Positions 1 through 50,724 of a stretch of DNA of 64,000 nucleotides are shown here, one piece after another. Position 1 is the stretch's first letter, and each line of letters begins with the position of its first letter. The stretch comes from an uncultured Clostridia bacterium. Lineage in GTDB: Bacteria; Bacillota; JAAYKD01; CAYOCI01. The stretch spans positions 15,267 through 79,266 of the forward strand of contig CAYOCI010000005.1 of NCBI GenBank assembly GCA_964402415.1. The letters are read 5' to 3'. The notes under the pieces were generated by a model, which saw nothing but the letters and a program-made list of their open reading frames with translations, was not told the origin of the DNA and made no database searches. A program made the translations under genes and the position numbers.

Positions 1-716
1 TGCGAGAAAGGCGCCACCTCGCCGTGCACGTCTGTAGCACCGATTCCGATCACTTGGTCATACCCAGCTGGATAATACAGCTTGTTCCGCTTATACGTCT
101 GCCCTTCATTACCTACCGCCGCGATCAGCACCACCCCGCGACTGGCCGCGTATTCTACCGCCTGCCTGAGCACTAAGGTGTCGGACTGACCGAACGCCAA
201 AAGCAGGATGTCACATTGGAATTCATCCACAGCGCCGATTATCGCTGCCGCCGCGACCTCTGCGGTCGTGATGGCTCCTGTGGCTGATATCTTGAGCGAG
301 ATCAGCTCTGCGTCGGGGGTTGCAGCCGCGATGATCGATGCAAGAGCAGTGCCGTGTCCCGTGTGATCGACGGAGAAGCTCTCGTCAGTAAGGTAATTGC
401 GCCCATCCACGACATTGAGGCCAGCTTTGGATGAGATGCCGGAATCAATCACCCCGACGCGGATGACCCCATCACCCGCAGCGGGTGCAATCACATCTTC
501 CACTGGTTGCTTCTCATCAACCGGTGGCGCGATATCCCTATCGAGATCGCTCTCAACTTTGCTACCAGAACTGATTACGGTGACAATTCTGTATCCGCGC
601 CAAGAACCATCAACGGCCCCCATCACAGTGGGGCAGAAGTCAGTCAATAAGGCAAGAATAACGCCAGTTACGATGAGCAAGCGAATCTTGATTCTCGTGG
701 CAATCCCTCCTCCCAC
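1..716 (-). CDS. subtilisin-like serine peptidase (S8), C-terminal part runs off the left edge
   Basis: Minus-strand translation gives a signal peptide (..IKIRLLIVTGVILALL..), then VIDSGI, HGTALAS and ..GIGATDVHGEVAPFS subtilase motifs. Probable GTG start near 716. The listed + ORF 397..783 is antisense to this gene. Confidence 0.6.
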   Translation of the reverse strand, partial: MGGGIATRIKIRLLIVTGVILALLTDFCPTVMGAVDGSWRGYRIVTVISSGSKVESDLDRDIAPPVDEKQPVEDVIAPAAGDGVIRVGVIDSGISSKAGLNVVDGRNYLTDESFSVDHTGHGTALASIIAAATPDAELISLKISATGAITTAEVAAAAIIGAVDEFQCDILLLAFGQSDTLVLRQAVEYAASRGVVLIAAVGNEGQTYKRNKLYYPAGYDQVIGIGATDVHGEVAPFS

Positions 717-829
717 ATGCCCGTTACTGGTGTCCCAGCAGCCGATGAAGCGCGGTATGATCCCCTTAACCACGGTTACATAAGTGTAGTCACCTAAGGA
801 CACATACCACGGCCACCGGTATCGTCTCT

Positions 830-1009
830 TCACCTGGTTTGTTCCTCCCTAACTCGGAAAGCTGCTAGTCGTTGTTTCAGAAGCTCCTGTAGCCTTCGGG
901 TTTCCTCGCAGGTAGTGGGGCGAATATGAGCCTTATTGCAAGAGGGGCAGTCCTTTACCGCTCCCGCACGGTAGAACAAGAAGCCGCAGTCCTCGCAGGC
1001 GTAAGTCAT
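830..1009 (-). CDS. small zinc-ribbon protein (CxxC..CPxC)
   Basis: MTYACEDCGF..CPSCNK. RBS AAAGGAGGGGA 5 nt upstream of the internal ATG, so the true start is more likely 1009 than 1048. Confidence 0.45.
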   Translation of the reverse strand: MTYACEDCGFLFYRAGAVKDCPSCNKAHIRPTTCEETRRLQELLKQRLAAFRVREEQTR

Positions 1010-1075
1010 GGTATCCCCTCCTTTCTCCTTGGGCGATAGACTGAACACGTCACGCTGTCACCATGGCGATGGTCT

Positions 1076-1984
1076 TCAGATCCCCAGCAGCTGCCTTTTC
1101 TTAGCGTCAAACTCCTGCTGAGAGATGACTCCATCCTCCATTAGAGCCTTGTATTTTCTGATCTCCTCGATGGGATCGGCAGGAGGTGCGAAGTTCGGAG
1201 GTACCACCTGTGCTCCCGCTGTACCAAGACCGATGGACTGCTCCGGTGCATCGGGAAATGCCACCATCTTCAAGGCATAGACCAGCTTCGCTATCTCCTC
1301 ACTGCTGCGCTGGTATGAGTGGAGGTAGTCATTCACATCCGGGCGGTCGTTGCAGAATCTGGGGCCGTCCATGTCGCATCTGATCACTGTCCAGTAGGGA
1401 TGCTCGAAATGCAGTTCCACGTTAAACGCCTTAAAGGGCTCCGGGAGATCAAAATACTGCATCGGTGTTGTTCGACGCTCCTGGTCGCCGTCCATCTTGT
1501 CGATGGCGCGGGCCAGCTGCCGGTTGATCATGAACTGAGTGATCAGCGGTGCAAGCGCCATGGCGCGTTCCGGTACGGTGCTGGTATAGCGCTTGATGCC
1601 CTCTGCAGATCCCTCGAACAGGGGTGTGCCGTCCTCCCTGATGGCAAAGGATGTCAGATGCTTGCCTGCAAATACTGTCTTGTCCGGGTTACTGCTCATG
1701 CAGAACAGTCTGTTCTGAAAGTCGAAAATAGCTTTGGTGTCCCAAAGACCAGAGTCAATGCGCTCGGAAACAACGAACTGATCTCTCAGCAGCTGATTCT
1801 GATCGTAGAACGCCAAGTAATCCTTGAACCCCTGCATGGTGAGATGAGCCTGCATGTCGGTTTCCATGTCGATTTTGCTGAAACAGGTGTCGCAGATATA
1901 CTCGCCCTCGATTTTCGATGGTAGAAACCAGGAGATCTTGCCACCACAGATGGGGCAAGGGGGTTTCTTAGAGAACAAGCCCAT
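1076..1984 (-). CDS. zinc-ribbon / SHOCT-domain protein
   Basis: N-terminal CPICGGK..CDTCFSK and C-terminal SHOCT-like KYKALMEDGVISQQEFDAKKRQLL. RBS AGGAGGG before the ATG at 1984 (MGLFSKK..); the longer 334-aa ORF start lacks an RBS. Confidence 0.55.
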   Translation of the reverse strand: MGLFSKKPPCPICGGKISWFLPSKIEGEYICDTCFSKIDMETDMQAHLTMQGFKDYLAFYDQNQLLRDQFVVSERIDSGLWDTKAIFDFQNRLFCMSSNPDKTVFAGKHLTSFAIREDGTPLFEGSAEGIKRYTSTVPERAMALAPLITQFMINRQLARAIDKMDGDQERRTTPMQYFDLPEPFKAFNVELHFEHPYWTVIRCDMDGPRFCNDRPDVNDYLHSYQRSSEEIAKLVYALKMVAFPDAPEQSIGLGTAGAQVVPPNFAPPADPIEEIRKYKALMEDGVISQQEFDAKKRQLLGI

Positions 1985-2201
1985 AATATATCCCTCCTGT
2001 TTGTTCCAGTTATCTCGTTCTGCCGCCTGAGCGACCCAAGCAGATCCCATATCCACGGTCCGGCGTAATGAATTCCGCATCTCCGTGCCTTCCCTTCAAA
2101 GCGCTAGTCAGTATTCCAGTCCAGCACCGATTCATGAGTTCCGCCCCGGTCAGTGCCATCCAGCCCCTCTGGGTGATATGCATGGACCATCTTCGCACGA
2201 C

Positions 2202-2756
2202 TCATTTCGCTCTTGGCATATCGGCCTTAGCCGTCTGCTCCTCCAGATACACTCGTTGCCGAAAGCCTAACGTCCCCGCAATCAGGGAAACCGGCAGCAT
2301 GCGGATCTCACGGTTCAGTTTGGTGACGCTATCGTTGTATATCAGGCGGCTGGTGCGCACCATGTTTTCATAGGTTTCGACCGCGTTCATTGTCTTGATA
2401 TAGCCCTGGTTGGCTTTCAACTCGGGGTATTGCTCCGAGACCATGGCAATCCTGCCCAATGCTTCAGAAAGGATCCCTTCCTGGCGAAGCACCTCATCCG
2501 GTGTGGATCGTGCCGTAATCACGCTTCTTCTCGACTTGATCGTCTCGATCAGGGTTTCACTCTCGTGTTTGGCATAGCCCCTTACCAGATCCAAGAGAGC
2601 TGTCAGAGCATCGAAGCGGCTTGAAAGCTGCACCCCGATCTGGCTCATGGCATTGCCGACATTCTCATCGAGCACCACCAGTCTGCGCTGGGTGGAGATT
2701 ATCCATAGACCAATGACCACAACCATTGCGATTATGACGATGAAAGTTGGCAACAT
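2202..2756 (-). CDS. lemA: LemA family membrane protein
   Basis: N-terminal TM helix then LemA-like LVVLDENVGNAMSQIGVQLSSRFDALTALLDLVRGYAKHE. RBS GGAGGAG 6 nt before the ATG at 2756 (the ORF track start at 2771 is GTG). Confidence 0.65.
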   Translation of the reverse strand: MLPTFIVIIAMVVVIGLWIISTQRRLVVLDENVGNAMSQIGVQLSSRFDALTALLDLVRGYAKHESETLIETIKSRRSVITARSTPDEVLRQEGILSEALGRIAMVSEQYPELKANQGYIKTMNAVETYENMVRTSRLIYNDSVTKLNREIRMLPVSLIAGTLGFRQRVYLEEQTAKADMPRAK

Positions 2757-2848
2757 AATCAACTCCTCCACTTTCGGCTAACTTGTGTAGGCTCATTCAC
2801 CGAGTTCAATCTAGCAAATATCCCGTGAAAGAACCGTTCGCTGCATGA

Positions 2849-2883
2849 AACATGGTTTTTACGACATGAATCATGGTTTCGGA
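2849..2883 (+). promoter_or_regulatory. LytTR-type operator copy A (two 9-bp direct repeats ACATGGTTT / TCATGGTTT, 21-bp spacing)
   Basis: Direct repeats with the 12-bp spacer typical of AgrA/LytTR sites. A near-identical element recurs at 4998..5031 and 5250..5284. Confidence 0.5.
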
Positions 2884-3073
2884 TTGAACTAAACCATGAC
2901 ACCGCTCTTTAAGCGGTGTCAGCTTCGGCTCGAGCAGATGCGCTCATGGCTATCGACGATGGTGTAGCCCTCAGTGAGCACGTGTGCCTGTTTCATCGTT
3001 GGGGTTGGTGCCAACTGAGAATCCACGGAAAGGGTGATAAGGTGTTTTCCGACGGCAGTTTACGCATGCAAAG

Positions 3074-3118
3074 GCCTCCTGTCGTAGTCATCCTACAACA
3101 GGAGGCTCTTTTAACTCC
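3074..3118. terminator. intrinsic terminator hairpin GCCTCCTGTCGTAGTCATCCTACAACAGGAGGC followed by a T-run
   Basis: Perfect 9-bp stem with TCTTTTAACTCC on the plus strand, 58 bp downstream of the minus-strand gene ending at 3164. Almost the same stem-loop recurs at 8843..8875. Confidence 0.55.
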
Positions 3119-3163
3119 GTGTCCAATCTCCAAGGTTCAGTTCAGCTCGTATCATCCCCTTGA

Positions 3164-4915
3164 CTAATCCACCGTCACAACGATGTCGTATTCCGCAATC
3201 TTCGTGCCTTTATACCGTATCTCAACCACCTTCTTACCTTCGGTTTGGAACGGGCGACCCTGTGTCAGTTCCACCGTTTTCGAAGTATAGAAGGTGATCT
3301 GATCATTGACGCCGCGGAGGACCCCTCCTTCATCGATAACCGCGCTCAGGCCGGTGGCGTCAAAACCCTCGCCGACCTTGTAGTTAGTCTTTGTGGGATA
3401 GGACTGAACATACGCCACTGTCGTTACACCATTTTGGGTATCCTCGGTCCAGAATGTGATCTTGGCATTGTCAGGTACATCGGTATGTGTCCACCCGATG
3501 ATCAACGTACCGTTCGCGCTTGACTTGCCGCTGGCGTTGACCACCAGTTTTTGCTTGAGATAGTCCCTGATGGTGCCATATGAGGAATACATGTTGATCC
3601 GCCAATAATGAGGTTGGCTGCTCGCTGTCGATACCAACTGCTTTCCTTCCACAGACCCCGGCAGCATAATATATCTTCCGTCATAGGCGATGGAGTACTT
3701 TGGCCCGCGGTCGTCATCGTTACTTATCAGCGTAATAGTGAACGGCTTCTCAGGCCTCTTATCATGGAGCTCTAGCCAGTAATCGCTCCCCCATACAGGG
3801 TAAACGTACTTGCCAAAGATCTGCAAATAGTACTCGCCGCTCGGTAGAAGACCCTCATCAACCGTCACTTGCTTAAGCACAGTCACGGGTTTCTCATACT
3901 TTACTCCCACATATGGCGCCCCGGGTTGAATAACCGCCTGGTTGGCCGCACTATCCCAGTACACATTAAACTGTGACGCCGTACCGGAGAGCTTCTGAGC
4001 GAACTCACGCAGCTGAATGTAGTTGGTACTGCCGTTGATCAACCAGGCGTCCGAAAACGAGAAGACTTCGCCATTCATCTTGAACTTTAGATCGCTCCGC
4101 CGGAGATCCATTGTGTCGCGCATCCTACCCCCGGTAACCGTACCGCTAAACGGCTTGCCTGGTTCAATCACGACATATTCGCCGTCCCAACCTACATTAA
4201 ACTGCGCTGCGGTATCGTTAAGTACTGCCGCGATGCCGCGAAGCTGCAAGTAGTTGGTCTGATTGATCGTATACGCTGACTTTACTTGTTGCGGGTTATC
4301 GAACATCTTGCCTCGCACAACAAACTCCGTTTTGCTCGGCGTGGCAAGGATCGAGCCGGCAGGTGGGATCGGTTTGGGGGCTGGCTGGGGACCGCCGATC
4401 TTAGCCAACTCCACATCATCGAGGCCGAAGACCCTTACAATGTAAAAGTTGCTATTACGAGTGGTATCGGTCTCACCAGCGCCATCGGTACCATCGAAAG
4501 TATACTCATAAAATTCTTGGACAGTGATAGGGCTTCCCTCTTGAAACTCTACATAGATGGCTTCTTCGTATTCACAGGCGTATTCTGGACGTGCCTCATC
4601 CAAACCTACCGATAGATTCATCTCATTAAACGGCCAGAGAAGATATCTTGAGATCTGAGAGTATACGTTACTATAATCCACATTTTTGACCGTTATGGTA
4701 GCACCAGCCGGTACGTAAACATGGGTGAAATAGTATTGGCCAATCGGATCATAACCATAGGAACTACCCGTCGCATAAACATCTGTGATCTCAAGGGAAT
4801 AGGAGATTAAGTTGAACGTCCTGGTGGTACCAGCGGCTTGTACAGGGGCTGTCGCTAGCAGCAGCATCAGCACCATGCCCAAGGTCAGCAGAATACTCAT
4901 AGGCCTCTTGCTCAT
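3164..4915 (-). CDS. secreted protein with two copper-amine-oxidase-N-terminal-like (cell-wall-binding) domains
   Basis: Signal peptide MSKRPMSILLTLGMVLMLLLATAPVQA. Repeated YLQLRGIAAVLNDTAAQFNVGWDGE / YIQLREFAQKLSGTASQFNVYWDSA modules. RBS AAGGAGGAG upstream. Confidence 0.65.
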   Translation of the reverse strand: MSKRPMSILLTLGMVLMLLLATAPVQAAGTTRTFNLISYSLEITDVYATGSSYGYDPIGQYYFTHVYVPAGATITVKNVDYSNVYSQISRYLLWPFNEMNLSVGLDEARPEYACEYEEAIYVEFQEGSPITVQEFYEYTFDGTDGAGETDTTRNSNFYIVRVFGLDDVELAKIGGPQPAPKPIPPAGSILATPSKTEFVVRGKMFDNPQQVKSAYTINQTNYLQLRGIAAVLNDTAAQFNVGWDGEYVVIEPGKPFSGTVTGGRMRDTMDLRRSDLKFKMNGEVFSFSDAWLINGSTNYIQLREFAQKLSGTASQFNVYWDSAANQAVIQPGAPYVGVKYEKPVTVLKQVTVDEGLLPSGEYYLQIFGKYVYPVWGSDYWLELHDKRPEKPFTITLISNDDDRGPKYSIAYDGRYIMLPGSVEGKQLVSTASSQPHYWRINMYSSYGTIRDYLKQKLVVNASGKSSANGTLIIGWTHTDVPDNAKITFWTEDTQNGVTTVAYVQSYPTKTNYKVGEGFDATGLSAVIDEGGVLRGVNDQITFYTSKTVELTQGRPFQTEGKKVVEIRYKGTKIAEYDIVVTVD

Positions 4916-4997
4916 AGGGTTGCTCCTCCTTACATCACGTTAACTCACATTGTTAGTCTATCAGACAGTCCTAACAAGAGGCCGCTCACTGCATGAA

Positions 4998-5031
4998 ACA
5001 TAGATTTTTCTGCACGAGCCATGATTATTCG
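4998..5031 (+). promoter_or_regulatory. LytTR-type operator copy B (ACATAGATT / CCATGATTA, 21-bp spacing)
   Basis: Same architecture as copies A and C. Lies 83-116 bp upstream of the minus-strand secreted-protein gene start and upstream of a short plus-strand unit ending at the terminator at 5179..5223. Confidence 0.45.
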
Positions 5032-5178
5032 ACATGTAACGTCGTTCATGCGATCGTTCTTAGTGATAATCTTTCTATGGTGATATAGACGATGACGTCA
5101 AAACAACCTACAATCCCCCCTCTTCGGATGAGCGGAATGGGTCCCATCCGATACGTAAACGCTCCCATTAAGATCGTT

Positions 5179-5223
5179 AAGCCTGCCTCCGCGAAAGAAG
5201 GCAGGCTTTGTAGTTTTGATTTG
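5179..5223 (+). terminator. rho-independent terminator (AAGCCTGCCTCC GCGAAAG AAGGCAGGCTT + TGTAGTTTTGATTT)
   Basis: Long GC stem followed by a T-rich tract on the plus strand. No plus-strand CDS upstream, which suggests a short non-coding unit. Confidence 0.6.
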
Positions 5224-5249
5224 GCATGTTCGCCATCTCTTCACGCGGT

Positions 5250-5284
5250 ACATAGTTTTTCTACATGAATCATAGTTTCGGATA
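5250..5284 (+). promoter_or_regulatory. LytTR-type operator copy C (ACATAGTTT / TCATAGTTT, 21-bp spacing) upstream of the regulator gene (autoregulation)
   Basis: 43-86 bp upstream of the LytTR regulator start. Shares spacer ..acatgaaTCAT.GTTTCGGA with copy A. Confidence 0.55.
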
Positions 5285-5335
5285 CGACTTTAAGGTAAAC
5301 TTATCTTGGCGAAAAAAAGTAATGGAGGTCTATCT

Positions 5336-6058
5336 GTGCTACAAATTGCAGTCTGTGATGATAACATTGACGAGCTATCCAATATGGTACAGCTCATAAA
5401 CCTATACAGAACGTCGAAAAACATGGACTGCGAATACGGCGTCTTTGCAAATGGATTTGATTTGGTCTCGGCCTTAGGAAAAGGCAAGCAGTTTGATATA
5501 TACTGTTTGGACATCATTATGCCGGGCTTTACGGGCATTGATGTCGCAAAGGAAATCCGTATGGTTGACAAAACCGCGCCGATTGTGTTCTTTACATCCT
5601 CATCGGAGTTTGCTTTCGATAGTTATTCGGTGAAAGCGATCAACTATGTGTTAAAGCCGGTGTCTAAGGAAAAGTTCTTCGCTACCCTTAGTGAGGCGCT
5701 GGAACAGATTAAGATAGAAGAAGATGATGCAATCATCGTAAAGAGTAATGAGGGGATACAGAGGATACTGATTGCCAATCTAGTTTTTGCAGAGGTCATT
5801 GGCAGAAATGTTTTGTACCACCTCCGGTCTGGTAAAGTAATCGAATGTACCGAATCCTTTGCATCTGTCTGTGGGACCTTGCTGAGATTTGGATGCTTCG
5901 TCAAGACTCACCGTTCGTATATTGTTAACATGCGGTATATAGATACTATTGGTGATCATGGGGTGACTCTGCAAACGCTTTCGTCTGTCCCGATTTCCCA
6001 AGGGAAAGCGCGGGAGATAAAGCGTCTGTACCTGTCCTTTCAAATGGAGGGGGAGTAG
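5336..6058 (+). CDS. LytTR-family response regulator (receiver + LytTR DNA-binding domain), AgrA-like
   Basis: LQIAVCDDN..D..phosphoacceptor receiver N-terminus and a C-terminal LytTR fold (..FVKTHRSYIVNMRYI..). GGAGG RBS 7 nt before the GTG at 5336. Confidence 0.8.
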   Translation: MLQIAVCDDNIDELSNMVQLINLYRTSKNMDCEYGVFANGFDLVSALGKGKQFDIYCLDIIMPGFTGIDVAKEIRMVDKTAPIVFFTSSSEFAFDSYSVKAINYVLKPVSKEKFFATLSEALEQIKIEEDDAIIVKSNEGIQRILIANLVFAEVIGRNVLYHLRSGKVIECTESFASVCGTLLRFGCFVKTHRSYIVNMRYIDTIGDHGVTLQTLSSVPISQGKAREIKRLYLSFQMEGE

Positions 6059-6059
6059 G

Positions 6060-7325
6060 ATGCATCATTTAGCCATAATGAACTTTGGCTTTGTCCTCTT
6101 TTTTGGAACTACATTGTCTCTTTCTTTCGCAGATATCGGGATCAAAGAGAACATAAAGCAATATGCCCTGGTATTTCTCACTTTAGGATTCGCTCAGATT
6201 ATTGCATTTTTAATCTTTGGAGAGGAGTTCCTGTTTAGATCATATCCGTTCCTGACCCATCTTCCGTTGTTTCTGCTACTGAAGCACTATTACCGAAGAA
6301 GTTCCTATATTGCCGGTATTTCGGTTCTTTCCGCGTATCTCTTTTGCACGCCCAGAAAGTGGATTGGAACTGCGGTTTCTTATTTCTGGAGCTACAATAC
6401 GGGGGTCTCATATCTCGTTCAGATTCTGATCACCATACCCCTTCTAGTAGTCATTGTCAGGTACGTATCTCCTAATGTGGCTCGATTGAAGTTTGAAAGT
6501 AGCACGGTATTAAGATTTTTCATTTTGGTGCCGCTCATATACTACGTGCTTGAATATGTCCTCACGGTTTACACAAATCTGCTGTATCAAGGCGGCGCCG
6601 CCATCGTTGAACTCATGGATGCAGCGGTGGTGGTTATATACTTCATCTTTTCGATTGCTTACCTCAAGATTCTCTATGAAAAGAAAGAAGTTGAGGTCGA
6701 ACAGGCGCTGTTCAAGGTTCTGGCTGACCAATCCAAGGCGGAAATAGAAACACTCAGAAAATCTCAAGAGCAAACCGCCATCTACCGTCATGATATACGG
6801 CACCACATGAATTACCTGAACGCTTGCATTCTGGAAGGCAATCCGGAGCAGGCGCGCTCATATATAACCACAGTCTGCGAGGGTATCGACAATACCAGGG
6901 TGTTACGATACTCGGAGAATGAGTCTGTAAACCTGATCCTCTCGTCCTATGCTGCGAAAGCAGCAGAAAGAAATATCCACAGTGAAATCAGCGTTTCCAC
7001 TGTGGACTTTGGTAAGTTCGCGGTACCTGATCTATGCAGTTTGCTGTTAAATGCTCTGGAAAATGCCATAGGTGCCAGCGAACAAGTAGCGGACAGTAGC
7101 AAACGCTGCATTAGGGTGCGTATGTACTCCAAGAATAACAAGCTGTGCATCGACATTCGCAACAGTTATCAGACACAACCCGTGTTCTACCAAGGGTTCC
7201 CTATATCAAGAGAGCAGGGGCATGGTTTTGGCACAAAAAGTATGGCTCATGTGGTGGAAAAGTATGATGGCATGTACGAGTTTTCGATCAGGGATGGTCT
7301 CTTCGTATTTCAGGCAACTGCATAA
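6060..7325 (+). CDS. AgrC/LytS-like sensor histidine kinase (GHKL ATPase, polytopic N-terminus)
   Basis: Six or seven predicted TM helices, H-box RHDIRHHMNYL, C-terminal HATPase region. Start overlaps the regulator stop. Confidence 0.8.
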   Translation: MHHLAIMNFGFVLFFGTTLSLSFADIGIKENIKQYALVFLTLGFAQIIAFLIFGEEFLFRSYPFLTHLPLFLLLKHYYRRSSYIAGISVLSAYLFCTPRKWIGTAVSYFWSYNTGVSYLVQILITIPLLVVIVRYVSPNVARLKFESSTVLRFFILVPLIYYVLEYVLTVYTNLLYQGGAAIVELMDAAVVVIYFIFSIAYLKILYEKKEVEVEQALFKVLADQSKAEIETLRKSQEQTAIYRHDIRHHMNYLNACILEGNPEQARSYITTVCEGIDNTRVLRYSENESVNLILSSYAAKAAERNIHSEISVSTVDFGKFAVPDLCSLLLNALENAIGASEQVADSSKRCIRVRMYSKNNKLCIDIRNSYQTQPVFYQGFPISREQGHGFGTKSMAHVVEKYDGMYEFSIRDGLFVFQATA

Positions 7326-7975
7326 GAGGTTGATCTGTATATTCTGCTGTGGCTGCTCGGTTCGCGAAGGCGCCATGATCTTCCCTCACTTTGTGTTCAG
7401 CCCTTCGTCTTTCGGGCGTCCCTTACTCGACTACTATGGCCTCTGCTGACGCCTGCCGCCCGATCGCATCTCGCGATGCGGTTTACCGAGATTCTCGGCC
7501 TTTCGGCAGGTTTTTCCCGGTAAGAACGTTGCCCTTCTCTCCATCTACCCGCCCCGTTTGCTACGAAAGCCCTGAATTAGCTGGAACTTCACTTTGTGTT
7601 GTAAGCTCGTCCAACTATCGCGGCCTCAATCGAGGATTGTGATCCTCGGGCCGGAGACTTTCCGCCGGCTTCCGTCAGATTCCACCTCGCGATGGACCCC
7701 TAGGTTGCATAGGCAGCAGCAGACGCAGTCTACGACCAGCCCTTGCCTTAGGCTAACGGCTTCGCTATCCTCGCCGTTCTGGACTTTCGCCATATAGACA
7801 ACGCCCATGCCGGGCGCACATCCAAAAAACCGCTGCATATGCAGTGGTCTTTATCAAGAAGCAATCCTCCAGGTTGGGTTTCCTGGCTACACAGGTAAAT
7901 CGTGGCTACACTCGGCACAGGTAGGTAAGGCAAGGGAGAGCCAAGCTCTATCATCACACCTCTGATACTTACCTG

Positions 7976-8689
7976 CTAGTGCCTTGCGAGCTCAATTAGC
8001 CTTTTCGCCACAAGAATGTTCCATACCAGCAGGAAGACAACAGAGAACAGGGAGATATAGAGGCCGATGGTTGGTACAAAGAGACCGAAATCCAGTACGC
8101 TAGAGAGAATGCGCACGTATGCTGTCGTCTTGCTGAAGGTGGCACTCCTGAGCATGACAATCGAGATGATGAGACCACTTATCGAGCCGACTACGTAGTT
8201 CACGTGGAAAGCAGTTCCATTGAAGAGAGCAAGCATCATCTGACCTGATGAGAGGAAGACAGTCCGCTGTGCATCTGTAGTCGCAGCAGCGTACTGACTG
8301 CTTAGCGAGAGCATCTCAAAGACTGGTCTGGCCGTAACAAATAGCACCACTCCTACAACGCTAAGAACCAGGAAGATCGCCGAGAGGGAGTGGTCTATCC
8401 CCCTAAGCGCGGCGTACAGGGCAAGAGCAACTGGCAGCGAGAGGATAGTGTAGACAATCATGAGGAACTCAAACGACAGGAGTCCAAGGAGCCAGTCCTC
8501 TTGGAACAGTGTGAACCAATCCAATACACTGCCGTTAAGCGGCGGGGAGCAAGCCGCAAACAGGATAGACTGTATCGGGATGATCATGGCCATGAATAGT
8601 GCAGATGCCCCAGCGATTTTGTACAATCCAGACCAACCGGGATCGGCAATGGTAAGGCCTGTGACCTGGGTTGGTTTTCGCACAGACAC
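7976..8689 (-). CDS. polytopic membrane protein (DUF4386-like)
   Basis: 237 aa, about 6 hydrophobic helices, no catalytic motifs. Confidence 0.5.
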   Translation of the reverse strand: MSVRKPTQVTGLTIADPGWSGLYKIAGASALFMAMIIPIQSILFAACSPPLNGSVLDWFTLFQEDWLLGLLSFEFLMIVYTILSLPVALALYAALRGIDHSLSAIFLVLSVVGVVLFVTARPVFEMLSLSSQYAAATTDAQRTVFLSSGQMMLALFNGTAFHVNYVVGSISGLIISIVMLRSATFSKTTAYVRILSSVLDFGLFVPTIGLYISLFSVVFLLVWNILVAKRLIELARH

Positions 8690-8829
8690 TTAGCTCCCTC
8701 CTGACTCAGGACCAGCGATCTGCTCAAGACTACCACGCGTTTCCGTTTTCCATGGGCCAGCTTCACGATCAGCCGTTACATCCTACTTATACACCAGCGA
8801 CAATATGCGCCCTATATCGAGAAACTGGA

Positions 8830-8875
8830 TCGGGATCAAAAAGCCTCCTGTCGTAGTCATCCGACAACAGGAGGC
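8830..8875 (-). terminator. intrinsic terminator, stem-loop GCCTCCTGTCGTAGTCATCCGACAACAGGAGGC + TTTTTGATCC on the minus strand
   Basis: About 65 bp downstream of the minus-strand gene ending at 8945. Stem-loop differs by one loop base from the hairpin at 3074..3106. Confidence 0.6.
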
Positions 8876-8944
8876 TCTGTTGATTCAATGTCTGATTTCC
8901 GGGGCAGTTCAGTTCATGAGGGATAGGCTCGCCTATTTCACAAG

Positions 8945-10459
8945 TCAACCACCTTCCACAATGCCCTCTTGAGCACCTCTTGCTCGCTGACCAGATCTAC
9001 CCCGGGCAATCTTCATGGCCAAGACTGCTGCTGCGTGTGAGGCAAACAGGGTCACAAAAGGCATCACGGGATAGGCATAGCGCGCAAAGGTATAGAACGG
9101 TAGATAGGATAGCGTGAAGTATGCCATGACCGAAAGCAAGAGCAATGCCCCAGTATTCCTTAGTCGGCGGATAGTTGCCAGACACCCGAGTAGCCCTAGG
9201 GCTAAGACAAAGCGATGGGACTTGTCCACCAGATGCCTGGGAACTCCCAGGACCTCCTTCCAGTAATACGAGTCATACCAGAGATGCCACGCCTTGCCGA
9301 CGGTATACCAACGCAGGTAAGCCAGTGGGTGCTGAGGAACGTAGGTCTGTAATCGCTCTCTGGCGGTCGCCATCTCGATCTCGTTGACCTCAATGGCGTC
9401 CTTACCTTCGGTCGGTTGGTTGTACGGTACGTAGTCGCGGCTCTGATCGTATTCGACATAGGTCCCCTGCAGAAAGGGATTACCTGAGCTCAGGGTCAGA
9501 GGGATGAACCGATGAAACGCATAGGCGTTCCTCAGCCACCATGGCATCATCACCAAAGCGAATACCGCGATTGTGGCCGCCGCACACCTTAGCATATCTC
9601 GCAAGGGATAACGCTGGACGAGCCAGACCACTAGGATGGCAGCTGGATATAATGCAATGGTAGGACGAAAGAGGCAGGCTACTCCCCACACGAGGCCCCC
9701 GATCGCGTACCAATGACTAGACTTGCTCCTGATAGCACGCACTGAGACGTAGACCAACAACAAGAAGACAAACTTGAATTCCACATCCGTGAGGACCAGG
9801 CCCGTGCTGGAGTAGTTGGGCAGATACAGAGCACTGAGCAAACAGGCGAGCAGGGCGACCCTATGGCTAAAGGCTTCCACCCCGATTGCGAAGGTGAGAG
9901 CGATCGACAACGACTGGAGCATAGCCTGCAGCATCCGAAAGGCCATCACTCCACCCATTCGGCCAAAGAACAGCATCAACCCCGACAGGACGAACGTGTG
10001 TCCCGGCATGATGAAGACCGTCGGGGCATTGGGGTCGTGGTAGGTCAGCCGCCCCGTCTCCACTAATGTCCAGGCACTGCGGATGTACTTCACATCGTCG
10101 TTGTTCATGGTCGCCAGATCGCCGAGCAGGAACTGATCGCCCAGACTGCTGACCAAATAGGCGTTGACGGCAAAGTGAGCCAGGCAAATCAGAACGAGCA
10201 GCACCCGATACGGGTGCTGCTTGGCATAGCGCAGATGCAAGACCCTTACCCCCCAACTTCTGTGCCACCACGCTCTAGCAAGCTGTGGCGGTTCTCTCTC
10301 TATACTCTCCACGATGCAGTATCTTAGCACAGACTCGCTAACATAGACGCGGATTCTGGGGGGATCTACTTCATCTGCCTGGATGCGACAGACTTCGTCG
10401 TGTCTGATCACGGCGGTATCGTGATAGGTACAGAAGAAAGAAATACCGAGCAGAGACAA
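8945..10459 (-). CDS. GT39/GT83-like (ArnT/PMT-type) membrane glycosyltransferase; N-terminus uncertain
   Basis: Multiple TM helices with a large C-terminal periplasmic-type domain. The first ~70 residues of the listed ORF are probably not translated; possible TTG/GTG start near 10249. Confidence 0.5.
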   Translation of the reverse strand: MSLLGISFFCTYHDTAVIRHDEVCRIQADEVDPPRIRVYVSESVLRYCIVESIEREPPQLARAWWHRSWGVRVLHLRYAKQHPYRVLLVLICLAHFAVNAYLVSSLGDQFLLGDLATMNNDDVKYIRSAWTLVETGRLTYHDPNAPTVFIMPGHTFVLSGLMLFFGRMGGVMAFRMLQAMLQSLSIALTFAIGVEAFSHRVALLACLLSALYLPNYSSTGLVLTDVEFKFVFLLLVYVSVRAIRSKSSHWYAIGGLVWGVACLFRPTIALYPAAILVVWLVQRYPLRDMLRCAAATIAVFALVMMPWWLRNAYAFHRFIPLTLSSGNPFLQGTYVEYDQSRDYVPYNQPTEGKDAIEVNEIEMATARERLQTYVPQHPLAYLRWYTVGKAWHLWYDSYYWKEVLGVPRHLVDKSHRFVLALGLLGCLATIRRLRNTGALLLLSVMAYFTLSYLPFYTFARYAYPVMPFVTLFASHAAAVLAMKIARGRSGQRARGAQEGIVEGG

Positions 10460-10474
10460 GCTCTGCCCGGTATA

Positions 10475-11512
10475 CTAGATGCCATCCTGTAGTTTAACCA
10501 CTTCCGTTATGGCCAGATCCTCACGCTCCTGAAGATCAATTATGTCCTGCCCCACACGGATGACAGGATGTCCCAGATGGTTCCTATCGACAAACACCAC
10601 ATCGCCAATGCGCCCATCACTGAGGGCGACCTGGCACCCAGCTAGACATTGCAGCATACGGTCAATGAAAACTAGCACGGTTCTGGCGTCCAGTGTCCCG
10701 ATGCTTTCCTGTAGATGTTCAAGGACCGTATATGGACTACTCTTGCCTTTGTACGGTCGCTTCGAAGTCATGGCATGGTATACGTCGGCAACAGCCACGA
10801 TCTTGGCATAGGGATGCTGTTCATCACCCCCCACCCCATCCGGGTAACCCGAACCATCCAGCCTCTCATGGTGCTGTAGCACCGCCTGCTTGATGCAATC
10901 TTTGTAGCCACCGGAATACTCAAGTATCCGAAGGCCGAGCTTTGGGTGCCTCTTCATGATATCGAACTCGGTCTTTGTTAACCGACTAGATTTGTAGATG
11001 ATGTCCTTTGGGATCTGGCTCTTGCCAATATCGTGAAGCGTGCCAGCCACCGCAATATCGGACAGTTCTGGGCCAGAATGACCCAGCCACTCCCCTATCA
11101 CCATTGATAGTACTCCGATGCTCACGGTATGCTGGAAGGTATACTCGTCCTGAGTCTCTAATTGACTCAGGAGCCTTACGATGTTGGATTCTCTCTGGGT
11201 CTCGACGACGAAGGGCTGAACGACTGCCTCAACTTCTGAGACTGAAAGTGGCTTACCTTCCGCTGCCTTTCTCATCATGAGCTTTGATTGAGCTATGGAT
11301 CGCCGGTATAAAGCGCGGAGGTCGACCATTACGGCCTTTGGTCCTATCTCGATCAGCGTGTTGATTGTGGCCCGGGTAAGCCGCGCACCTGCTCTGACCA
11401 ATAGGACACCATTCCTCAGGCATACATCGTGTGCTAGCCTGTCACCTGGAACAAGGCAGCTAACTGGAACAGGCCGTGCAAACTTCCTCACTTCGTCGGA
11501 CACTAGACTCAT
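10475..11512 (-). CDS. HD-GYP domain phosphohydrolase (c-di-GMP phosphodiesterase family)
   Basis: HDIGK...HHERLDGSGYP motif. Second ATG at 11512 is preceded by GGAAGGA. Confidence 0.7.
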   Translation of the reverse strand: MSLVSDEVRKFARPVPVSCLVPGDRLAHDVCLRNGVLLVRAGARLTRATINTLIEIGPKAVMVDLRALYRRSIAQSKLMMRKAAEGKPLSVSEVEAVVQPFVVETQRESNIVRLLSQLETQDEYTFQHTVSIGVLSMVIGEWLGHSGPELSDIAVAGTLHDIGKSQIPKDIIYKSSRLTKTEFDIMKRHPKLGLRILEYSGGYKDCIKQAVLQHHERLDGSGYPDGVGGDEQHPYAKIVAVADVYHAMTSKRPYKGKSSPYTVLEHLQESIGTLDARTVLVFIDRMLQCLAGCQVALSDGRIGDVVFVDRNHLGHPVIRVGQDIIDLQEREDLAITEVVKLQDGI

Positions 11513-11954
11513 TTTCTCATATCCTTCCAACAGCTTTGGTCAGGGGCACCGCAATTGTTGGGGCGTAGCTGCCAACTGGGACCAACATCCGCTGGGCATC
11601 AAAAAACGCCCTTGTCACGCCATGACAAGAACGTAGAGTCCTCTTGTCTGGCAACCCGGCTACCATAGCTATCTGACTAGCCTTAGGCCCGTGGTTTTGC
11701 GTCCCCACCTTTCGATAGGTTTGCCGTGTACATCAAGATCACTGTATTCAGGTGTCCAGGCTATACACTTAGTCACTTTGTGCGTCCATAATTCACCACA
11801 GCTGGGTGCTTTTCCTGTGCCTACAGCAAATAAACCGACATGGTACGTCAAAATACATCAAACAGTCAGCAAGCGCTTCACCAACCGACGGGCACAACAG
11901 CAAATTAGCCCAGAACTAGCCTATTCACTGGCTAACTCCTGGGCTAATCGTCCT

Positions 11955-11990
11955 CGTCAGTACAAAGAGAAAAGGCCCTCAGGCCCTTAT
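11955..11990 (-). terminator. host-derived tRNA-operon terminator remnant next to attL (AAAAGGCCCTCAGGCCCTT)
   Basis: Hairpin plus flank imperfectly matches the terminator at 50437..50462. Confidence 0.4.
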
Positions 11991-11997
11991 CTTACTA

Positions 11998-12058
11998 GGT
12001 TGGTGCGAGGGAGGGGAGTTGAACCCCTACGCCGTGAGGCACTAGATCCTAAGTCTAA
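11998..12058. repeat. attL: 61-bp perfect direct repeat of the tRNA-Leu 3' end (identical to 50481..50541)
   Basis: GGTTGGTGCGAGGGAGGGGAGTTGAACCCCTACGCCGTGAGGCACTAGATCCTAAGTCTA is present at both positions; the sequences diverge immediately after. Confidence 0.85.
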
Positions 12059-12250: not shown

Positions 12251-14011
12251 CTAAAAACGTATCCCCAATAATCCACCATCTTCTTTTGCGTCTGTCAGCG
12301 TCAGCCGAATGTAGTCCTTCAGGTTGAAGCAAGAGTTGAAGAGTTCCCATGGCACATCATCTGAGTTAATGCTACAGATGTACTGGAACCCGCATTCGCC
12401 AGCCTTCCTACAAGCGAGCTCGAGTGCACGTGCTACTTGTCTTTCGTCAACTCCATCATAGATGGTGCTGTCATGAACCAAAAATCTCGGTCCCACGGCC
12501 TTCTTAGCCCATAATTGGGCCAGCATGAGATCATAGCAAAACACCTTCATTTGCTCGATGCCTTGACTGTCAGATCGCTCGATCTCGATATCAAACTTGA
12601 ACCCAGTCTGCGACACATCAACAACGAGCTTTCCCGGAGCTTGATAGAGTGCCTCAGAGTTGCCATTGAAAACGGAAACGGCAGCTTCCAGCGCACTGTG
12701 CCTCGCATCGTGATCAGCAACAGCTTCCAGATGCAGCTTGGCTTGCTCTATCTGCCGAGCGCTCTTTGCCTCTTCTAGCTTGCGAAGGCTTTCGATGCGC
12801 TGTTTCAGAGACTCAAGCCTCGCCACTTTGCTCACGTGATTTTCATTCAACCTTAGGTACTCCTCTAGAGCACCATGACTTTCGAGTACTCGCAACAGGG
12901 ATGATCTCTTCTCAGACAACGCCTTTACCCGTGCATCCCGCTCTTTCACCGCAGTTTCGAGTTGACTGATTTCTGCGGCGAGAAACTCGCGACGGTTCGC
13001 TGTAACTGCGGCGTGAAAGGTAGCAACATCCTGAAGGCGTCTGAGAACGATGTCGGGGAAAGCTAAGCCAATCTCCCTATAAATCTTCTCGACCTGGATC
13101 GGGTCCGTGTGCTTTTCGTCTCTAGTACTCTGTCTGTACGTGTCTATGAGCCTGTGGTCACGGAAGTTTTCATTTGACAGCTTATGGATGGATGAGGTTA
13201 AGGAGCTAGCTTCCTCCTCGATATCGTGATACTGCGGATGCACGTTGAAGGTATCAAGTTGCTGCCTGCCACTAGTGATCTCATTCTCAAGACGGATTCT
13301 ATCGGTCTCAAGCTTGCCGATTGACCCAATCAAATTCGGGAAGAAATCGTCGCTAGCGGCCTTCTTAAGATCCTTCAGCGCCTTCTCAGTATCCTTTATG
13401 AGCTGCCAGTGCTGTGCATGTTCCCAGCCTAGATCCAGCAGGAAGGTGTTATCTACCTGCCTCTCCCACTCCTTCTGCTTCCTATAATGCTCGAAAGGTG
13501 TACTGAACGCATCACGGCCACGCCTAGCGAAATATGATATGAGGTTTCTGAACGAAGGTGCATATCTGCTGGCATTATCCAGACACTCAACAGGAAGATC
13601 AAACAATAGCCATCCCAATACGGTATTCCACTCTCTTACAGGCATCGATGCTGTCCGCGTTCCGGGATCAACTTTCGGTTTAATCGGCCAATTGGACCAA
13701 TCGCCCTCGATCACTACTCTGCCTGGCTTGCTTGTGTTACGCGAAACTGCATACTCCCTGGACCTAAGCAGAATGTCCAGGGAGAAAGTCCAGTTGTCCA
13801 GTTGTTTCTTGAGGAGCCCCTTATTCTTACGCGTTTTGGCTCCAAGGCAGAAATGAATGATCTCAACTAGCGTCGTCTTGCCAAGCCCGTTTCTAGAGTC
13901 CTTATCAGATGACTCATCCGTTTTTTCCGCTAGGATAACATTGAGGCCAGCTCCGAAATGGACATTCTTAAAGCTGGGCTGATCACACCTGACTGCTAGG
14001 ATCATGTTCAT
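12251..14011 (-). CDS. SMC/ABC-type ATPase with long central coiled coil (Lamassu LmuB / Septu PtuA-like)
   Basis: N-terminal GLNVILAEK..NGLGKTTLVEIIHFCLG P-loop. About 230 aa of heptad-rich E/K/L/R sequence. C-terminal signature-like SQGIEQMKVFCYDLMLAQL and Walker B-like RFLVHDS. Probable start at MNMILAV (14011); the ORF listed to 14047 overlaps the upstream small gene. Confidence 0.7.
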   Translation of the reverse strand: MNMILAVRCDQPSFKNVHFGAGLNVILAEKTDESSDKDSRNGLGKTTLVEIIHFCLGAKTRKNKGLLKKQLDNWTFSLDILLRSREYAVSRNTSKPGRVVIEGDWSNWPIKPKVDPGTRTASMPVREWNTVLGWLLFDLPVECLDNASRYAPSFRNLISYFARRGRDAFSTPFEHYRKQKEWERQVDNTFLLDLGWEHAQHWQLIKDTEKALKDLKKAASDDFFPNLIGSIGKLETDRIRLENEITSGRQQLDTFNVHPQYHDIEEEASSLTSSIHKLSNENFRDHRLIDTYRQSTRDEKHTDPIQVEKIYREIGLAFPDIVLRRLQDVATFHAAVTANRREFLAAEISQLETAVKERDARVKALSEKRSSLLRVLESHGALEEYLRLNENHVSKVARLESLKQRIESLRKLEEAKSARQIEQAKLHLEAVADHDARHSALEAAVSVFNGNSEALYQAPGKLVVDVSQTGFKFDIEIERSDSQGIEQMKVFCYDLMLAQLWAKKAVGPRFLVHDSTIYDGVDERQVARALELACRKAGECGFQYICSINSDDVPWELFNSCFNLKDYIRLTLTDAKEDGGLLGIRF

Positions 14012-14228
14012 CCCTCCAAAGAACGCCGTCTTCATATCTGATGGCACCTATCGCGTAGAGGAACGTCAGAGCTAGGACATAGCGCTCAAACGTTCCGACT
14101 TCGGGAAGACGCTTTACACGATCCCACAGCACCGAGACCGTCGATGATCTTGGCATTGCCCGCAAGATACATGCGCCGATTCCAATTAATGAATACTCTG
14201 TGGGGATGTGTTTCGTAGGCAGAATCAT
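13983..14228 (-). CDS. small 81-aa protein translationally coupled between the HNH and ATPase genes (LmuC-like position)
   Basis: Start ATG overlaps the TGA stop of the HNH gene (ATGA). Its 3' end overlaps the ATPase start. Confidence 0.45.
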   Translation of the reverse strand: MILPTKHIPTEYSLIGIGACILRAMPRSSTVSVLWDRVKRLPEVGTFERYVLALTFLYAIGAIRYEDGVLWRDEHDPSSQV

Positions 14229-47151: not shown

Positions 47152-49014
47152 TCAATCTATACAACGGTATTTGTCATATATCGAACATGATGGACTTCTG
47201 AGCGTAATGTTGACTTGTTCCTGGTCTTCTAGGAGAGCCTTCCGAACCTCATCAGTGTTCTGCATGACAGCATCAGTGAAGACCAGCTTCCTCTGTATGG
47301 TCACCTCGTTACCACACAAGATCACAGTTAATGGCTCATATTCTCCGTGGTGCTCAAAAACAAGACTCTCCAGCCTATCAAGATGGGGTTCAAGCTCCTT
47401 TGCAGGCCATGAATATGCGACTGTCTGGACATCGCGTTTTCCTCGGTGAATGGCGCTGATAAGTGTGGCTACCGCAGAATCATCACCTGCTGACCATTTA
47501 CTCATATCGAGGCAAAGGTTAAAGTGAGTGGCAACGGAACGAACTCTGCGCAGATGGGTTAGATACTGATGCATTCTATCTCGAAAGCTGTCAACGTCGG
47601 CTCCAGTAAAGTTGCCAGCGAGAGGTACTTTGTGATTCCGCTCGGGGTCAATCACCATGAGTGTCTTTCCACACGCAAACTGTGATGCGATCATAGCTGC
47701 CGCATACATCTCTTCAATGTCACTCCCGTACTTGAAAGTCACCGCAAGCTTGTGCGTGGACCGATTCAACTTAGGCGTCCTAATGGTTATTGCAAGACAT
47801 TGGCTATTGAGTGAGACTTGGTATTCATGACTAAGCTCATAGCAGCAGACATCCGCCATAACCTTCTCCGGCATCGATTTGATCACCAGTACACCACTAT
47901 ACTGGCGAGTAGGATGCCTTTGGAACACAAGATCGCCAGATATTCCACCCTTTGCCTGGTCAAGCAGAAAATCTCCTGTCTTTGTTTCCATGCTAAGGAC
48001 CATCTTAGAAGGGATCTTTAGCTTTAGCTCTCTCCCCTCATGAAAAGCTTCTAGAGCTTTGTGGGCTTGACTAGTGAACTGCATGTCCAGTGTCATAGGG
48101 GTTCCCGGGACCAGAGTTATAGATCTAGAACCATCCGTGCTAGCGGTCAAACTCAGTTCTATCCCATTTTCCCTAACAACTTGTGCGATTCGGCTAATCT
48201 TGGTGTACTCACCGTCTTTGAAGCCAATCACTGTATACGGGTATGTCATCTTATGTAGGCACTCAAGCGCCTCCCGGGCGGTCATGTCGACATAATGGAT
48301 ACCCAGCTGCTCTAGGCGATCTCTATTGTGCTGTGCCCAACTCGGCGCTATTAGAAACCTCTCGGGTACACTATCCGATAGTTGCTTTGACACCGCTTCG
48401 AACACGAACTCAACATTAGGATCGTCAAACCCGTGACCTACTAGGACTACTGATTTGTGCGCTAGACACGTCTTGACACATGACCATAGAAGCGAGTTCC
48501 TAGCGACTGAGTTATCCAGAAATCGGTTATAGTCGCTACGTGTAATGATGATGCCATCCGGATCCCTACATATGTCCCCATGAACTTTGATTAAGGTTGT
48601 CCTGTCATCGCGCCCGTAGTTGGCTAGGTCTTTATCAGTCGATAAGACGACTAATTGATCCTCAAATGCTCTCTCGAAGAGATTGTCATAGTTGGTGGTG
48701 ATGATAGTCTCGATCTGAACCATGCCTTTGACAAGCCTATGCAACACTAGGTCGGGGGTCGGTCTATCGAGTGACTCCTGCACAATCCGTATTAGCTCTG
48801 AACGATCCCCCCTTCTCAATCGTACATACTCCTCTGCAACTTCAGGTAGGCCGCTACGTTGGTCAAGGAACTCTACTTCCTCTGGAGCGCAGCGCTGCTT
48901 GATGGCATTGACCAGATCATTACCCATGGGCAGTCCAGCATCCCAGTTGAACCCAGCTCCCGTCCATAGCACGACTTCTCCCCTACGGATCTTCTCAGCA
49001 ATCCGATGAAGCAT
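47152..49014 (-). CDS. SIR2-like (SIR2_2 / DUF4020-type) domain protein with ~350-aa uncharacterised C-terminal domain; candidate NADase defence effector
   Basis: VVLWTGAGFNWDAGLP, ITTNYDNLFERAF, IKVHGDI and VLVGHGFDDPNVEFVF motifs in the first ~270 aa. Standalone gene between the immunity module and int. Confidence 0.7.
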   Translation of the reverse strand: MLHRIAEKIRRGEVVLWTGAGFNWDAGLPMGNDLVNAIKQRCAPEEVEFLDQRSGLPEVAEEYVRLRRGDRSELIRIVQESLDRPTPDLVLHRLVKGMVQIETIITTNYDNLFERAFEDQLVVLSTDKDLANYGRDDRTTLIKVHGDICRDPDGIIITRSDYNRFLDNSVARNSLLWSCVKTCLAHKSVVLVGHGFDDPNVEFVFEAVSKQLSDSVPERFLIAPSWAQHNRDRLEQLGIHYVDMTAREALECLHKMTYPYTVIGFKDGEYTKISRIAQVVRENGIELSLTASTDGSRSITLVPGTPMTLDMQFTSQAHKALEAFHEGRELKLKIPSKMVLSMETKTGDFLLDQAKGGISGDLVFQRHPTRQYSGVLVIKSMPEKVMADVCCYELSHEYQVSLNSQCLAITIRTPKLNRSTHKLAVTFKYGSDIEEMYAAAMIASQFACGKTLMVIDPERNHKVPLAGNFTGADVDSFRDRMHQYLTHLRRVRSVATHFNLCLDMSKWSAGDDSAVATLISAIHRGKRDVQTVAYSWPAKELEPHLDRLESLVFEHHGEYEPLTVILCGNEVTIQRKLVFTDAVMQNTDEVRKALLEDQEQVNITLRSPSCSIYDKYRCID

Positions 49015-50568: not shown

Positions 50569-50637
50569 ATGGATGAAGGTTCCTATAGATGCAAACAGCT
50601 GAAAGCGATCGCTCACTTTCAACTCTGATCACATAAA

Positions 50638-50712: not shown

Positions 50713-50724
50713 GCGTTAGTGAAG

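Follow-up and report, generated by a model that had tools for sequence, protein, structure and literature searches.

A probable LytTR-type direct-repeat operator shared by lemA, an exported-protein gene and an AgrC-type two-component operon in an uncultured Clostridia bacterium

Two-component systems similar to AgrCA but without an adjacent agrBD pair include RgaS-RgaR of Clostridioides difficile and VirS-VirR of Clostridium perfringens, each of which controls a small regulon through paired direct repeats. Regulators of the LytTR type bind 9-bp direct repeats 12 bp apart (in a minority of cases 11 or 13 bp), located 4-11 bp, mostly 10 bp, upstream of the -35 element of promoters in which an extended -10 element is frequent (PMC6193735). 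In the case of C. difficile RgaR, critical G residues are located at -51 and -72 (PMC10602386). The current work concerns a comparable locus in a stretch of 64,000 nucleotides (nt), hereafter the window, from an uncultured Clostridia bacterium (contig CAYOCI010000005.1). Three copies of a direct-repeat element, named A, B and C, accompany lemA, a gene for an exported protein, and an operon encoding a response regulator and a histidine kinase. The original prediction had linked these three units through a LytTR-type operator, and the co-occurrence of the same components across genomes backs this link. The repeats very probably serve as the operator of the adjacent LytTR regulator, which is partnered with the AgrC-type kinase encoded directly after it.

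Like RgaSR and VirSR, the present system combines a membrane kinase and a LytTR regulator with few targets and with two repeats, at about -50 and -70, whose period is 21 bp. The targets of RgaSR and VirSR include, as here, small hypothetical or exported proteins, and RgaR also controls a small RNA. The repeat sequence, however, is unrelated to the VirR/RgaR box: a search of the window for the VirR box CCAGTTNTNCAC with one mismatch allowed gave 3 matches against 3.7 expected, none of them near the locus. Differences are also found in the outputs, which here are LemA, lipoproteins and exported proteins, whereas theirs are agrBD or toxins; in the use of one operator for two divergent promoters; and in the regulator itself, which is only distantly related.

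Staphylococcal agr shares with this locus a GHKL kinase of the AgrC type (HATPase_c_5), a LytTR regulator, the 21-bp period, and divergent promoters, including that of the regulator operon. Unlike agr, the locus has no AgrB or AgrD among the genes tested, and its regulator is not an AgrA equivalog. The agr promoters P2 and P3 have a repeat pair each, whereas here one pair appears to have been shared ancestrally, and the counterpart of RNAIII is at most a candidate. In the HdrRM and BrsRM systems of Streptococcus mutans, the arrangement is again similar, with repeats of 9-12-9 bp, a gap of 4-11 bp to a weak -35 and, in many cases, an extended -10 such as TGATAGACT (PMC6193735); the extended -10 of copy B is exactly this sequence. 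The S. mutans regulators, however, have no receiver and are paired with a membrane inhibitor, whereas a complete receiver and a cognate histidine kinase are present here.

All three elements were found where they had been predicted (2849..2883, 4998..5031 and 5250..5284), and the repeats in copies A, B and C are confirmed to be real and beyond chance. The 9-mer WCATRGTTT, for which 1.25 occurrences are expected in 64 kb, is found 6 times, with five of the matches inside copies A and C, while the paired pattern, with 0.04 matches expected by chance, is found in copies A and B alone. When the window was scanned for pairs of half-sites with a position weight matrix (PWM), copies C, A and B scored 26.4, 25.9 and 19.9, the runner-up scored 17.8, and only these 3 strong repeat pairs were present. 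A repeat search paired A with B over 45 nt (76%) and A with C over 28 nt (89%). In addition, a 35-nt PWM built from 19 sites of other genomes, with the window sequence excluded, detects A and B at the scores given in Table 1; the next match in the window has -2.8 bits, and the maximum over 20 shuffles is 9.9 bits. Copy C fails this matrix when no gap is allowed and reaches 27.3 bits with a 1-nt gap.

Some details of the original description must be revised. The claimed 21-bp spacing holds for A and B but not for C, in which the period is 20 bp. The repeats behind the claimed 9-mer consensus are real, although the two 9-mers of copy B, ACATAGATT and CCATGATTA, fit it loosely. The register had been misplaced: the conserved unit, GCATGAAnCAT, sits about 7 bp 5' of the 9-mers (ACATGGTTT), which according to information profiles comprise the 3' ends of the units together with poorly conserved bases. 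The information per column, computed on an alignment of 20 sites, peaks at TGCATGAAACAT, the T-run, CATGAAnCAT, a left block AAAAACCG and a block further left, TTCAATCTATCA, and drops between them. Among the peak positions is AAAACCG. The conserved core is thus (T)GCATGAAACAT / ACATGAAnCAT with a T-run between the units, and the TTCAATCTATCA block is the extended -10 TGATAGATTGAA on the minus strand.

Table 1. Features of the lemA, exported-protein and two-component locus (positions in the window)
Feature	Position	Strand	Details
S8 peptidase gene	3-698	-	same strand, after the zinc-ribbon gene
Small zinc-ribbon protein gene	830-1048	-	Pfam
DUF4428 + SHOCT protein gene	1076-2080	-	Pfam
DUF2207 gene relic	2065..2166	-	34 codons; 62% identity to residues 77-110 of the protein in locus L001
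lemA	2202..2756	-	184 aa (amino acids); one N-terminal transmembrane segment; ATG 2756
lemA core promoter	2808..2836	-	read from the sequence; conserved columns in site alignments
lemA extended -10	2816-2808	-	TGCTAGATT; 30-31 nt from unit 1 in 83/92 sites
Conserved block AAAGAACCG	2828-2836	-	contains the weak -35-like GGTTCT
Operator copy A, full	2840..2874	-	54.4 bits with the PWM from other genomes; 21-bp period
Copy A, unit 1	2843-2853		GCATGAAACAT
Copy A, unit 2	2864-2874		ACATGAATCAT
Copy A, minus-strand repeat 1	2875-2867	-	CATGATTCA; followed by 12 bp
Copy A, minus-strand repeat 2	2854-2846	-	CATGTTTCA; followed by a 10-bp gap, weak -35 GGTTCT, 16-bp spacer and extended -10
Intrinsic terminator	2897..2921	-	11-pair stem, 6 GC pairs, T-rich tail
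Exported-protein gene	3164..4915	-	583 aa; signal peptide; ATG 4915
Exported-protein promoter, extended -10	4955..4963	-	TGATAGACT; position conserved across sites
Operator copy B	4988..5042	-	39.6 bits with the PWM from other genomes
Copy B, unit 1	4991-5001		GCATGAAACAT
Copy B, unit 2	5012-5022		GCACGAGCCAT; weaker
Copy B, third unit	5032-5042		ACATGTAACGT; degenerate
Rightward promoter remnant and ~145-nt stretch	5064..5222	+	extended -10 TGATAATCT at 5064-5072, 34 nt from unit 3
Operator copy C, partial	5243..5273	+	20-bp period
Copy C, distal unit	5243-5253	+	ACGCGGTACAT; degenerate; -5.4 bits against 22-26 in A and B
Copy C, proximal unit	5263-5273	+	ACATGAATCAT; intact, as is the T-run; 18.7 bits
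Regulator-operon promoter and ribosome-binding site	5296..5328	+	-10 TAAACT at 5296-5301; ribosome-binding site GGAGG at 5324-5328
Response regulator gene	5336..6058	+	receiver and LytTR DNA-binding domain (Pfam)
Histidine kinase gene	6060..7325	+	Pfam HATPase_c_5, E = 2.6e-16; AgrC-type GHKL

The 9-bp repeats with a 12-bp spacer had been recognized as LytTR architecture. The functional orientation is that of lemA and the exported-protein gene, on the minus strand, where this arrangement is canonical: 9-12-9 bp and a further 10 bp lead to a weak -35, which is followed by an extended -10. Copy B is laid out like copy A, ending in TGATAGACT (4963-4955). With transcription starts predicted at about 2801 for lemA and about 4948 for the exported-protein gene, the units are located at -42..-52 and -63..-73 in copy A and at -43..-53 and -64..-74 in copy B, and the G residues of copy A that correspond to the critical ones of RgaR fall at about -50 and -71. 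The geometry expected of LytTR operators, with repeats 11-13 bp apart near a weak -35, is found at A and B, while C has its 20-bp period. The distances to the start codons that had been given, about 93-127 bp for copy A and lemA and about 83-116 bp for copy B and the secreted-protein gene, are correct for the two ATG codons in Table 1.

Conservation in other genomes carries the argument that operator and regulator belong together. A search that started from the regulator, with one genome per species, provided 17 loci (L001-L017) and a further one in Acetoanaerobium noterae (L023). Regulator orthologues with 65-91% identity are present in these 18 genomes from several clostridial orders; the carriers of L001-L017 are Sedimentibacter, Syntrophomonadaceae, Clostridium viride, Tissierella, Anaerotignum, Lachnoclostridium, Peptococcales, Acetivibrio straminisolvens and other Bacillota. 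In nearly all of the orthologue loci the repeat pair lies just 5' of the regulator gene, and in 12 of them LemA, with 63-93% identity, is encoded divergently from or near the pair. Beside distant LytTR regulators (24-29% identity), by comparison, the motif is absent in 5 of 5 loci. For the kinase, identity across L001-L017 and L023 is no more than about 36-41% over the whole protein and about 28% over the membrane half. Such conservation of the regulator and LemA together with divergence of the kinase suggests that the module may have spread horizontally with diversification of the sensor. Carriage by mobile elements was considered and rejected, since phage records contain no close homologues (identity of 40% or less) and the single plasmid match, at 72%, is a 2.6-Mb replicon of Acetoanaerobium noterae without annotation in the stretch concerned.

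Variations of the locus were also observed. In L017 (5773-5869), L002 (455-510) and L010 (5886-5940), the pair is replaced by a tandem array of three to five units, spaced at 20-21 bp. In L071, L075, L081, L102 and L007, a gene of about 70 aa for an XRE-family helix-turn-helix (HTH) protein, with its own promoter, is located between the operator and the regulator gene. L055 and L087 have a 5' leader of about 200 nt between the regulator promoter and the regulator gene, which is GC-rich and structured-looking in L055.

The same association appears when the motif is the starting point. An exact scan of metagenomes with GCATGAAACATNNTTTTTNNNNCATGAA (22 fixed bases), a pattern that did not extend into the flanks, returned 82 contigs, mostly from bioreactor, fermentation and activated-sludge assemblies; 80 of the 82 were analysed and gave 85 sites in 71 distinct contexts. 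On the right-hand side, 24 sites have the start of the regulator gene within 135 nt, and 12 more have it within 1300 nt. No regulator is found at 17 sites with at least 1300 nt of right flank, and these are therefore target promoters that stand alone, as copy A does. The first gene on the left-hand side encodes LemA (16 sites), a signal-peptide protein (18) or a lipobox lipoprotein (13), together 47 of the 65 sites with enough flank. In the left flank, AAAAACCG and the minus-strand -10 appear again, whereas the right flank shows no conservation. The minus-strand extended -10, TGnTAnnnT, keeps a nearly constant distance from unit 1 (Table 1). About 30 of the 92 sites have a rightward extended -10 at a distance of 33-35 nt from unit 2, and most others lack one; in the regulator-adjacent genome loci, the rightward -10 is likewise 33-35 nt from the unit. 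In anaerobic Clostridia, the motif is found next to orthologues of the regulator at about 100 further places.

By domain tests, the pair consists of a LytTR response regulator and an AgrC-type kinase. The receiver of the regulator matches Pfam Response_reg (E = 4e-14, 53 bits against a cut-off of 30) with D8, D9, D59 and K107 present, and the C-terminal LytTR domain (PF04397) gives E = 8e-9 and 36 bits against a cut-off of 22.6. The likeliest start of the regulator is GTG 5336, preceded by the ribosome-binding site GGAGG, which gives a protein of 240 aa; the Pfam run used the 250-aa open reading frame (ORF) from TTG 5306, so that LytTR residues 151-241 correspond to about 141-231 of the 240-aa protein. 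The regulator matches none of the AgrA, LytR and BtsR equivalogs of NCBIfam, reaching 37.6 bits with quorum_RR_AgrA, for which the cut-off is 400, and its only full-length solved relative is ComE (E = 2e-4). In the kinase, residues 1-206 include about 6 hydrophobic segments, and the H-box RH(244)D is followed by an N-box at 331 and a G-box at 387; the protein thus combines the polytopic sensor and the HPK10-type GHKL domain of AgrC-type kinases. A PADLOC search for anti-phage defence gave no match for any protein of the module.

The statement that no agrB/agrD pair is present was borne out, since none was found among the 18 window proteins scanned with Pfam, a scan that left aside prophage genes and ORFs under 40 aa. 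A 237-aa membrane protein (7976-8689) was tried as AgrB and rejected, having no Pfam or NCBIfam match. No conserved extra gene was found beside the kinase/regulator pair in related loci. Because neither AgrB nor AgrD was found and the regulator is not an AgrA equivalog, the system is not agr.

A mechanism of the following kind may be proposed. On a signal, the kinase would phosphorylate the regulator at D59, as its family membership indicates, and a regulator dimer would bind the two direct repeats over one 21-bp period, in agreement with the geometry and the co-occurrence. The minus-strand promoter would then consist of CATGWTTCA, 12 bp, CATGTTTCA, 10 bp, a poor -35, 16-17 bp and TGnTAGAYT, with the repeats at about -42 to -74, which is where LytTR activators classically sit at promoters without a -35. 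Copy A would switch on lemA with the DUF4428-SHOCT, zinc-ribbon and possibly S8 peptidase genes, and copy B would switch on the gene of the 583-aa exported protein. An ancestral operator between the exported-protein gene and the regulator operon would have served both directions and would later have been split.

The split is indicated by locus L001 of the closest relative, whose regulator is 91% identical and in which a single operator, flanked by a leftward -10 and by a rightward one, lies between the exported-protein gene and the regulator gene. Copies B and C arose from one such bidirectional operator by duplication or insertion, with a gain of about 220 bp; the DNA that separates B from C is missing from L001 and from every related locus fetched. 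After the split, B retains the leftward promoter, both units, the third degenerate unit and the rightward extended -10 TGATAATCT, which aligns with the regulator promoters of copy C, L001, L003 and L013. In copy C, only the 3' end is left of the distal unit, while the proximal unit is retained, as is the regulator -10, 32 nt from the start of the proximal unit.

These remnants bear on autoregulation, which had been proposed on the basis of copy C. Copy C does lie upstream of the regulator gene, at 52-86 bp from the likeliest start rather than the 43-86 bp given earlier. Autoregulation through it is plausible, and the conserved adjacency of operator and regulator gene in relatives supports it, but the evidence is weaker than had been claimed, copy C being a decayed half-operator. 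Feedback on the regulator operon thus appears likely in this genome but weakened by the split, because copy C holds only the proximal unit and the -10 of the regulator.

Several observations weigh against the assignment of the repeats to the adjacent regulator as an activator. The repeats fit neither the published LytTR consensus [TA][AC][CA]GTTN[AG][TG] nor the VirR box, and only the geometry is shared; a search for the LytTR consensus with one mismatch gave no match at A, B or C. This misfit does not exclude LytTR membership, because divergent operators are documented for other LytTR regulators, yet it is also what would be seen if the repeats were bound by another, unlinked transcription factor and the two-component operon were merely one of its targets. 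Binding by the present regulator is, after all, what we infer, and an XRE-type HTH gene lies between operator and regulator gene on some contigs. An unlinked factor is nevertheless very unlikely: the XRE gene occurs in few loci only, the 21-bp direct-repeat geometry with its 10-bp gap to the -35 and its extended -10 is a LytTR signature, and the motif tracks the regulator orthologues over about 100 loci while being absent beside distant LytTR regulators. It is less credible still that the copies are alike only through recent local duplication of a promoter, as paralogous leftovers without shared regulation. Duplication or insertion clearly lies behind B and C, and A and C have additional bases in common, TTTCGGAT, that flank the conserved core. 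However, the units and the distance to the extended -10 are kept across orders while the surrounding intergenic DNA differs, and A and B reach 54 and 40 bits with the matrix to which the window contributed nothing; the cross-genome conservation has largely refuted this explanation already.

The remaining points concern the direction of the regulator operon, towards which the repeats are inverted and overlap the -35. The distance between the repeats and the regulator -10 varies from 32 to 35 nt between genomes, looser than strict activator dependence would lead one to expect, and copy C is without the best-conserved half of the distal unit. Moreover, rightward promoters usually own an extended -10 and could fire unaided. 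The regulator might thus bind and yet repress, or have no effect on, its own operon, so that only the leftward promoters would be activated and copy C would be retained for the overlapping -35 or UP element of a constitutive promoter. Characterized LytTR systems are generally positively autoregulated (PMC6193735), however, and the adjacency of operator and regulator gene is very strongly conserved; a purely repressive or neutral role at the regulator operon is a doubtful though still appreciable possibility. Activation by the adjacent regulator, at least of the leftward promoters, remains the preferred interpretation.

The lemA product matches Pfam LemA (PF04011; E = 1.2e-35, 122.9 bits against a cut-off of 26.2) in a domain that follows the single N-terminal transmembrane segment, together with a partial match to the LemA-like MamQ model, under the cut-off of that model. 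The start MLPTF and its ribosome-binding site are kept in orthologues. The intrinsic terminator beyond copy A ends the secreted-protein transcript and insulates the lemA promoter, and at stand-alone sites on other contigs a hairpin is likewise found directly beside the repeats. A rightward promoter for copy A was rejected, as no -10 is present at the canonical distance and the minus-strand terminator hairpin follows immediately; because of these two features, copy A is regarded as a leftward-only site. An inverted repeat, TCATGGTTT, at 2871-2879 and 2891-2899 was also discarded as a functional element, its second arm being part of the U-tail of the terminator and not conserved in L001.

In L001, L003 and L005, the interval between lemA and the DUF4428-SHOCT gene is occupied by a complete DUF2207 gene of about 570 aa. 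Because only a relic is found where these relatives have the full gene, the usual partner of LemA has been deleted in this genome. The DUF4428-SHOCT and zinc-ribbon genes (830..2080, minus strand) are probable downstream members of the lemA operon, being co-linear with lemA in several related loci.

The exported protein presumably controlled from copy B had been labelled cell-wall-binding. A signal peptide is present, but no cell-wall-binding domain was recognized, and the label is unsupported because the sole domain match, Cu_amine_oxidN1 (E = 0.06), is sub-threshold. The protein contains two internal repeats that weakly resemble the N-terminal domain of Cu amine oxidase, and the corresponding gene has an internal DNA repeat of 231 nt. 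An element of about 80 bp with a terminator-like hairpin gcctcctgtcgtagtcatccNacaacaggaggc occurs twice in the window (3070-3148 and 8839-8915, 81% identity), each copy coinciding with the 3' end of a gene on the minus strand.

In the interval from B to C, the rightward promoter remnant is followed by a stretch of about 145 nt (5079-5222) that ends at a hairpin (5179-5208) with a U-rich tail (5209-5222) and has a fold z-score of -2.3. No homologue of this stretch was found in related loci. An Rfam scan of positions 1-12000 in E-value mode gave no match in 2700-5400, so the intergenic regions there match no known riboswitch or small RNA. The segment from the remnant promoter to the tail may, speculatively, be regarded as a candidate small RNA or an orphan leader. 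A small peptide-precursor gene was also sought here; the only ORFs, of 58 aa (plus strand) and 40 aa (minus strand), have no Shine-Dalgarno sequence, one of them runs through the terminator, and both were dropped as likely peptide precursors.

Other elements of the window lie outside the system. Directly 3' of the kinase gene, group II intron domains D1-D4 were found at 7400-7696 on the minus strand (Rfam RF02001, 94 bits; RF01998, 48 bits); no long ORF overlaps these matches, so this looks like an intron fragment or an ORF-less intron. A cyclic di-GMP (c-di-GMP)-I riboswitch (87 bits; 11647-11735, minus strand) is located upstream of an HD_5 (HD-GYP-like) gene at 10475-11530 on the same strand, and the c-di-GMP-sensing RNA may control this likely c-di-GMP phosphodiesterase. 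Between the two-component locus and a prophage, an ABC-3C/DUF2326 protein (12251-14047), an HNH protein and an Mrr-type nuclease form a small defence-island-like stretch. The prophage (about 17600-50400) carries a lysin, a holin, a tape-measure-sized ORF of 1302 aa, a SIR2-domain gene (47152-49014) and an integrase (49090-50391), and it adjoins a cluster of seven tRNA genes (50484-51231).

The module most likely adjusts the cell envelope, given that all of its outputs are envelope proteins, namely membrane LemA, lipoproteins and exported proteins. A more extensive picture can be drawn, in which kinase, regulator, operator and LemA, with DUF2207, DUF4428-SHOCT and a variable set of lipoproteins or exported proteins, would form an undescribed envelope-response module spread horizontally among the anaerobic Clostridia of digesters and fermenters; the kinase would sense the envelope or its own induced products and not an AgrD peptide, and the duplication may have added a regulator-dependent small RNA of about 145 nt (5079-5222), comparable to RNAIII or SpoZ. 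This picture is an unlikely one.

The mechanism itself is ordinary. LytTR regulation through direct repeats spaced by 21 bp is textbook knowledge, so the gain is a new regulon and not a new principle. A literature search found no paper that links LemA with a LytTR regulator or that contains the motif string; the regulon, comprising LemA, often DUF2207, DUF4428-SHOCT, lipoproteins and exported proteins, is previously undescribed and widespread in anaerobic Clostridia.

To our knowledge, no function is established for either LemA or DUF2207, its usual partner, both of which are membrane proteins found very widely in bacteria. The existence of a two-component system dedicated to them, with a sharp operator, offers a regulatory handle on both families. 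The specificity of the operator, with at least 22 fixed bases, allows the regulon to be read directly from genomes and metagenomes. Finding the trigger of the kinase would reveal a condition that requires LemA, and would thus provide a testable route to the function of this family.

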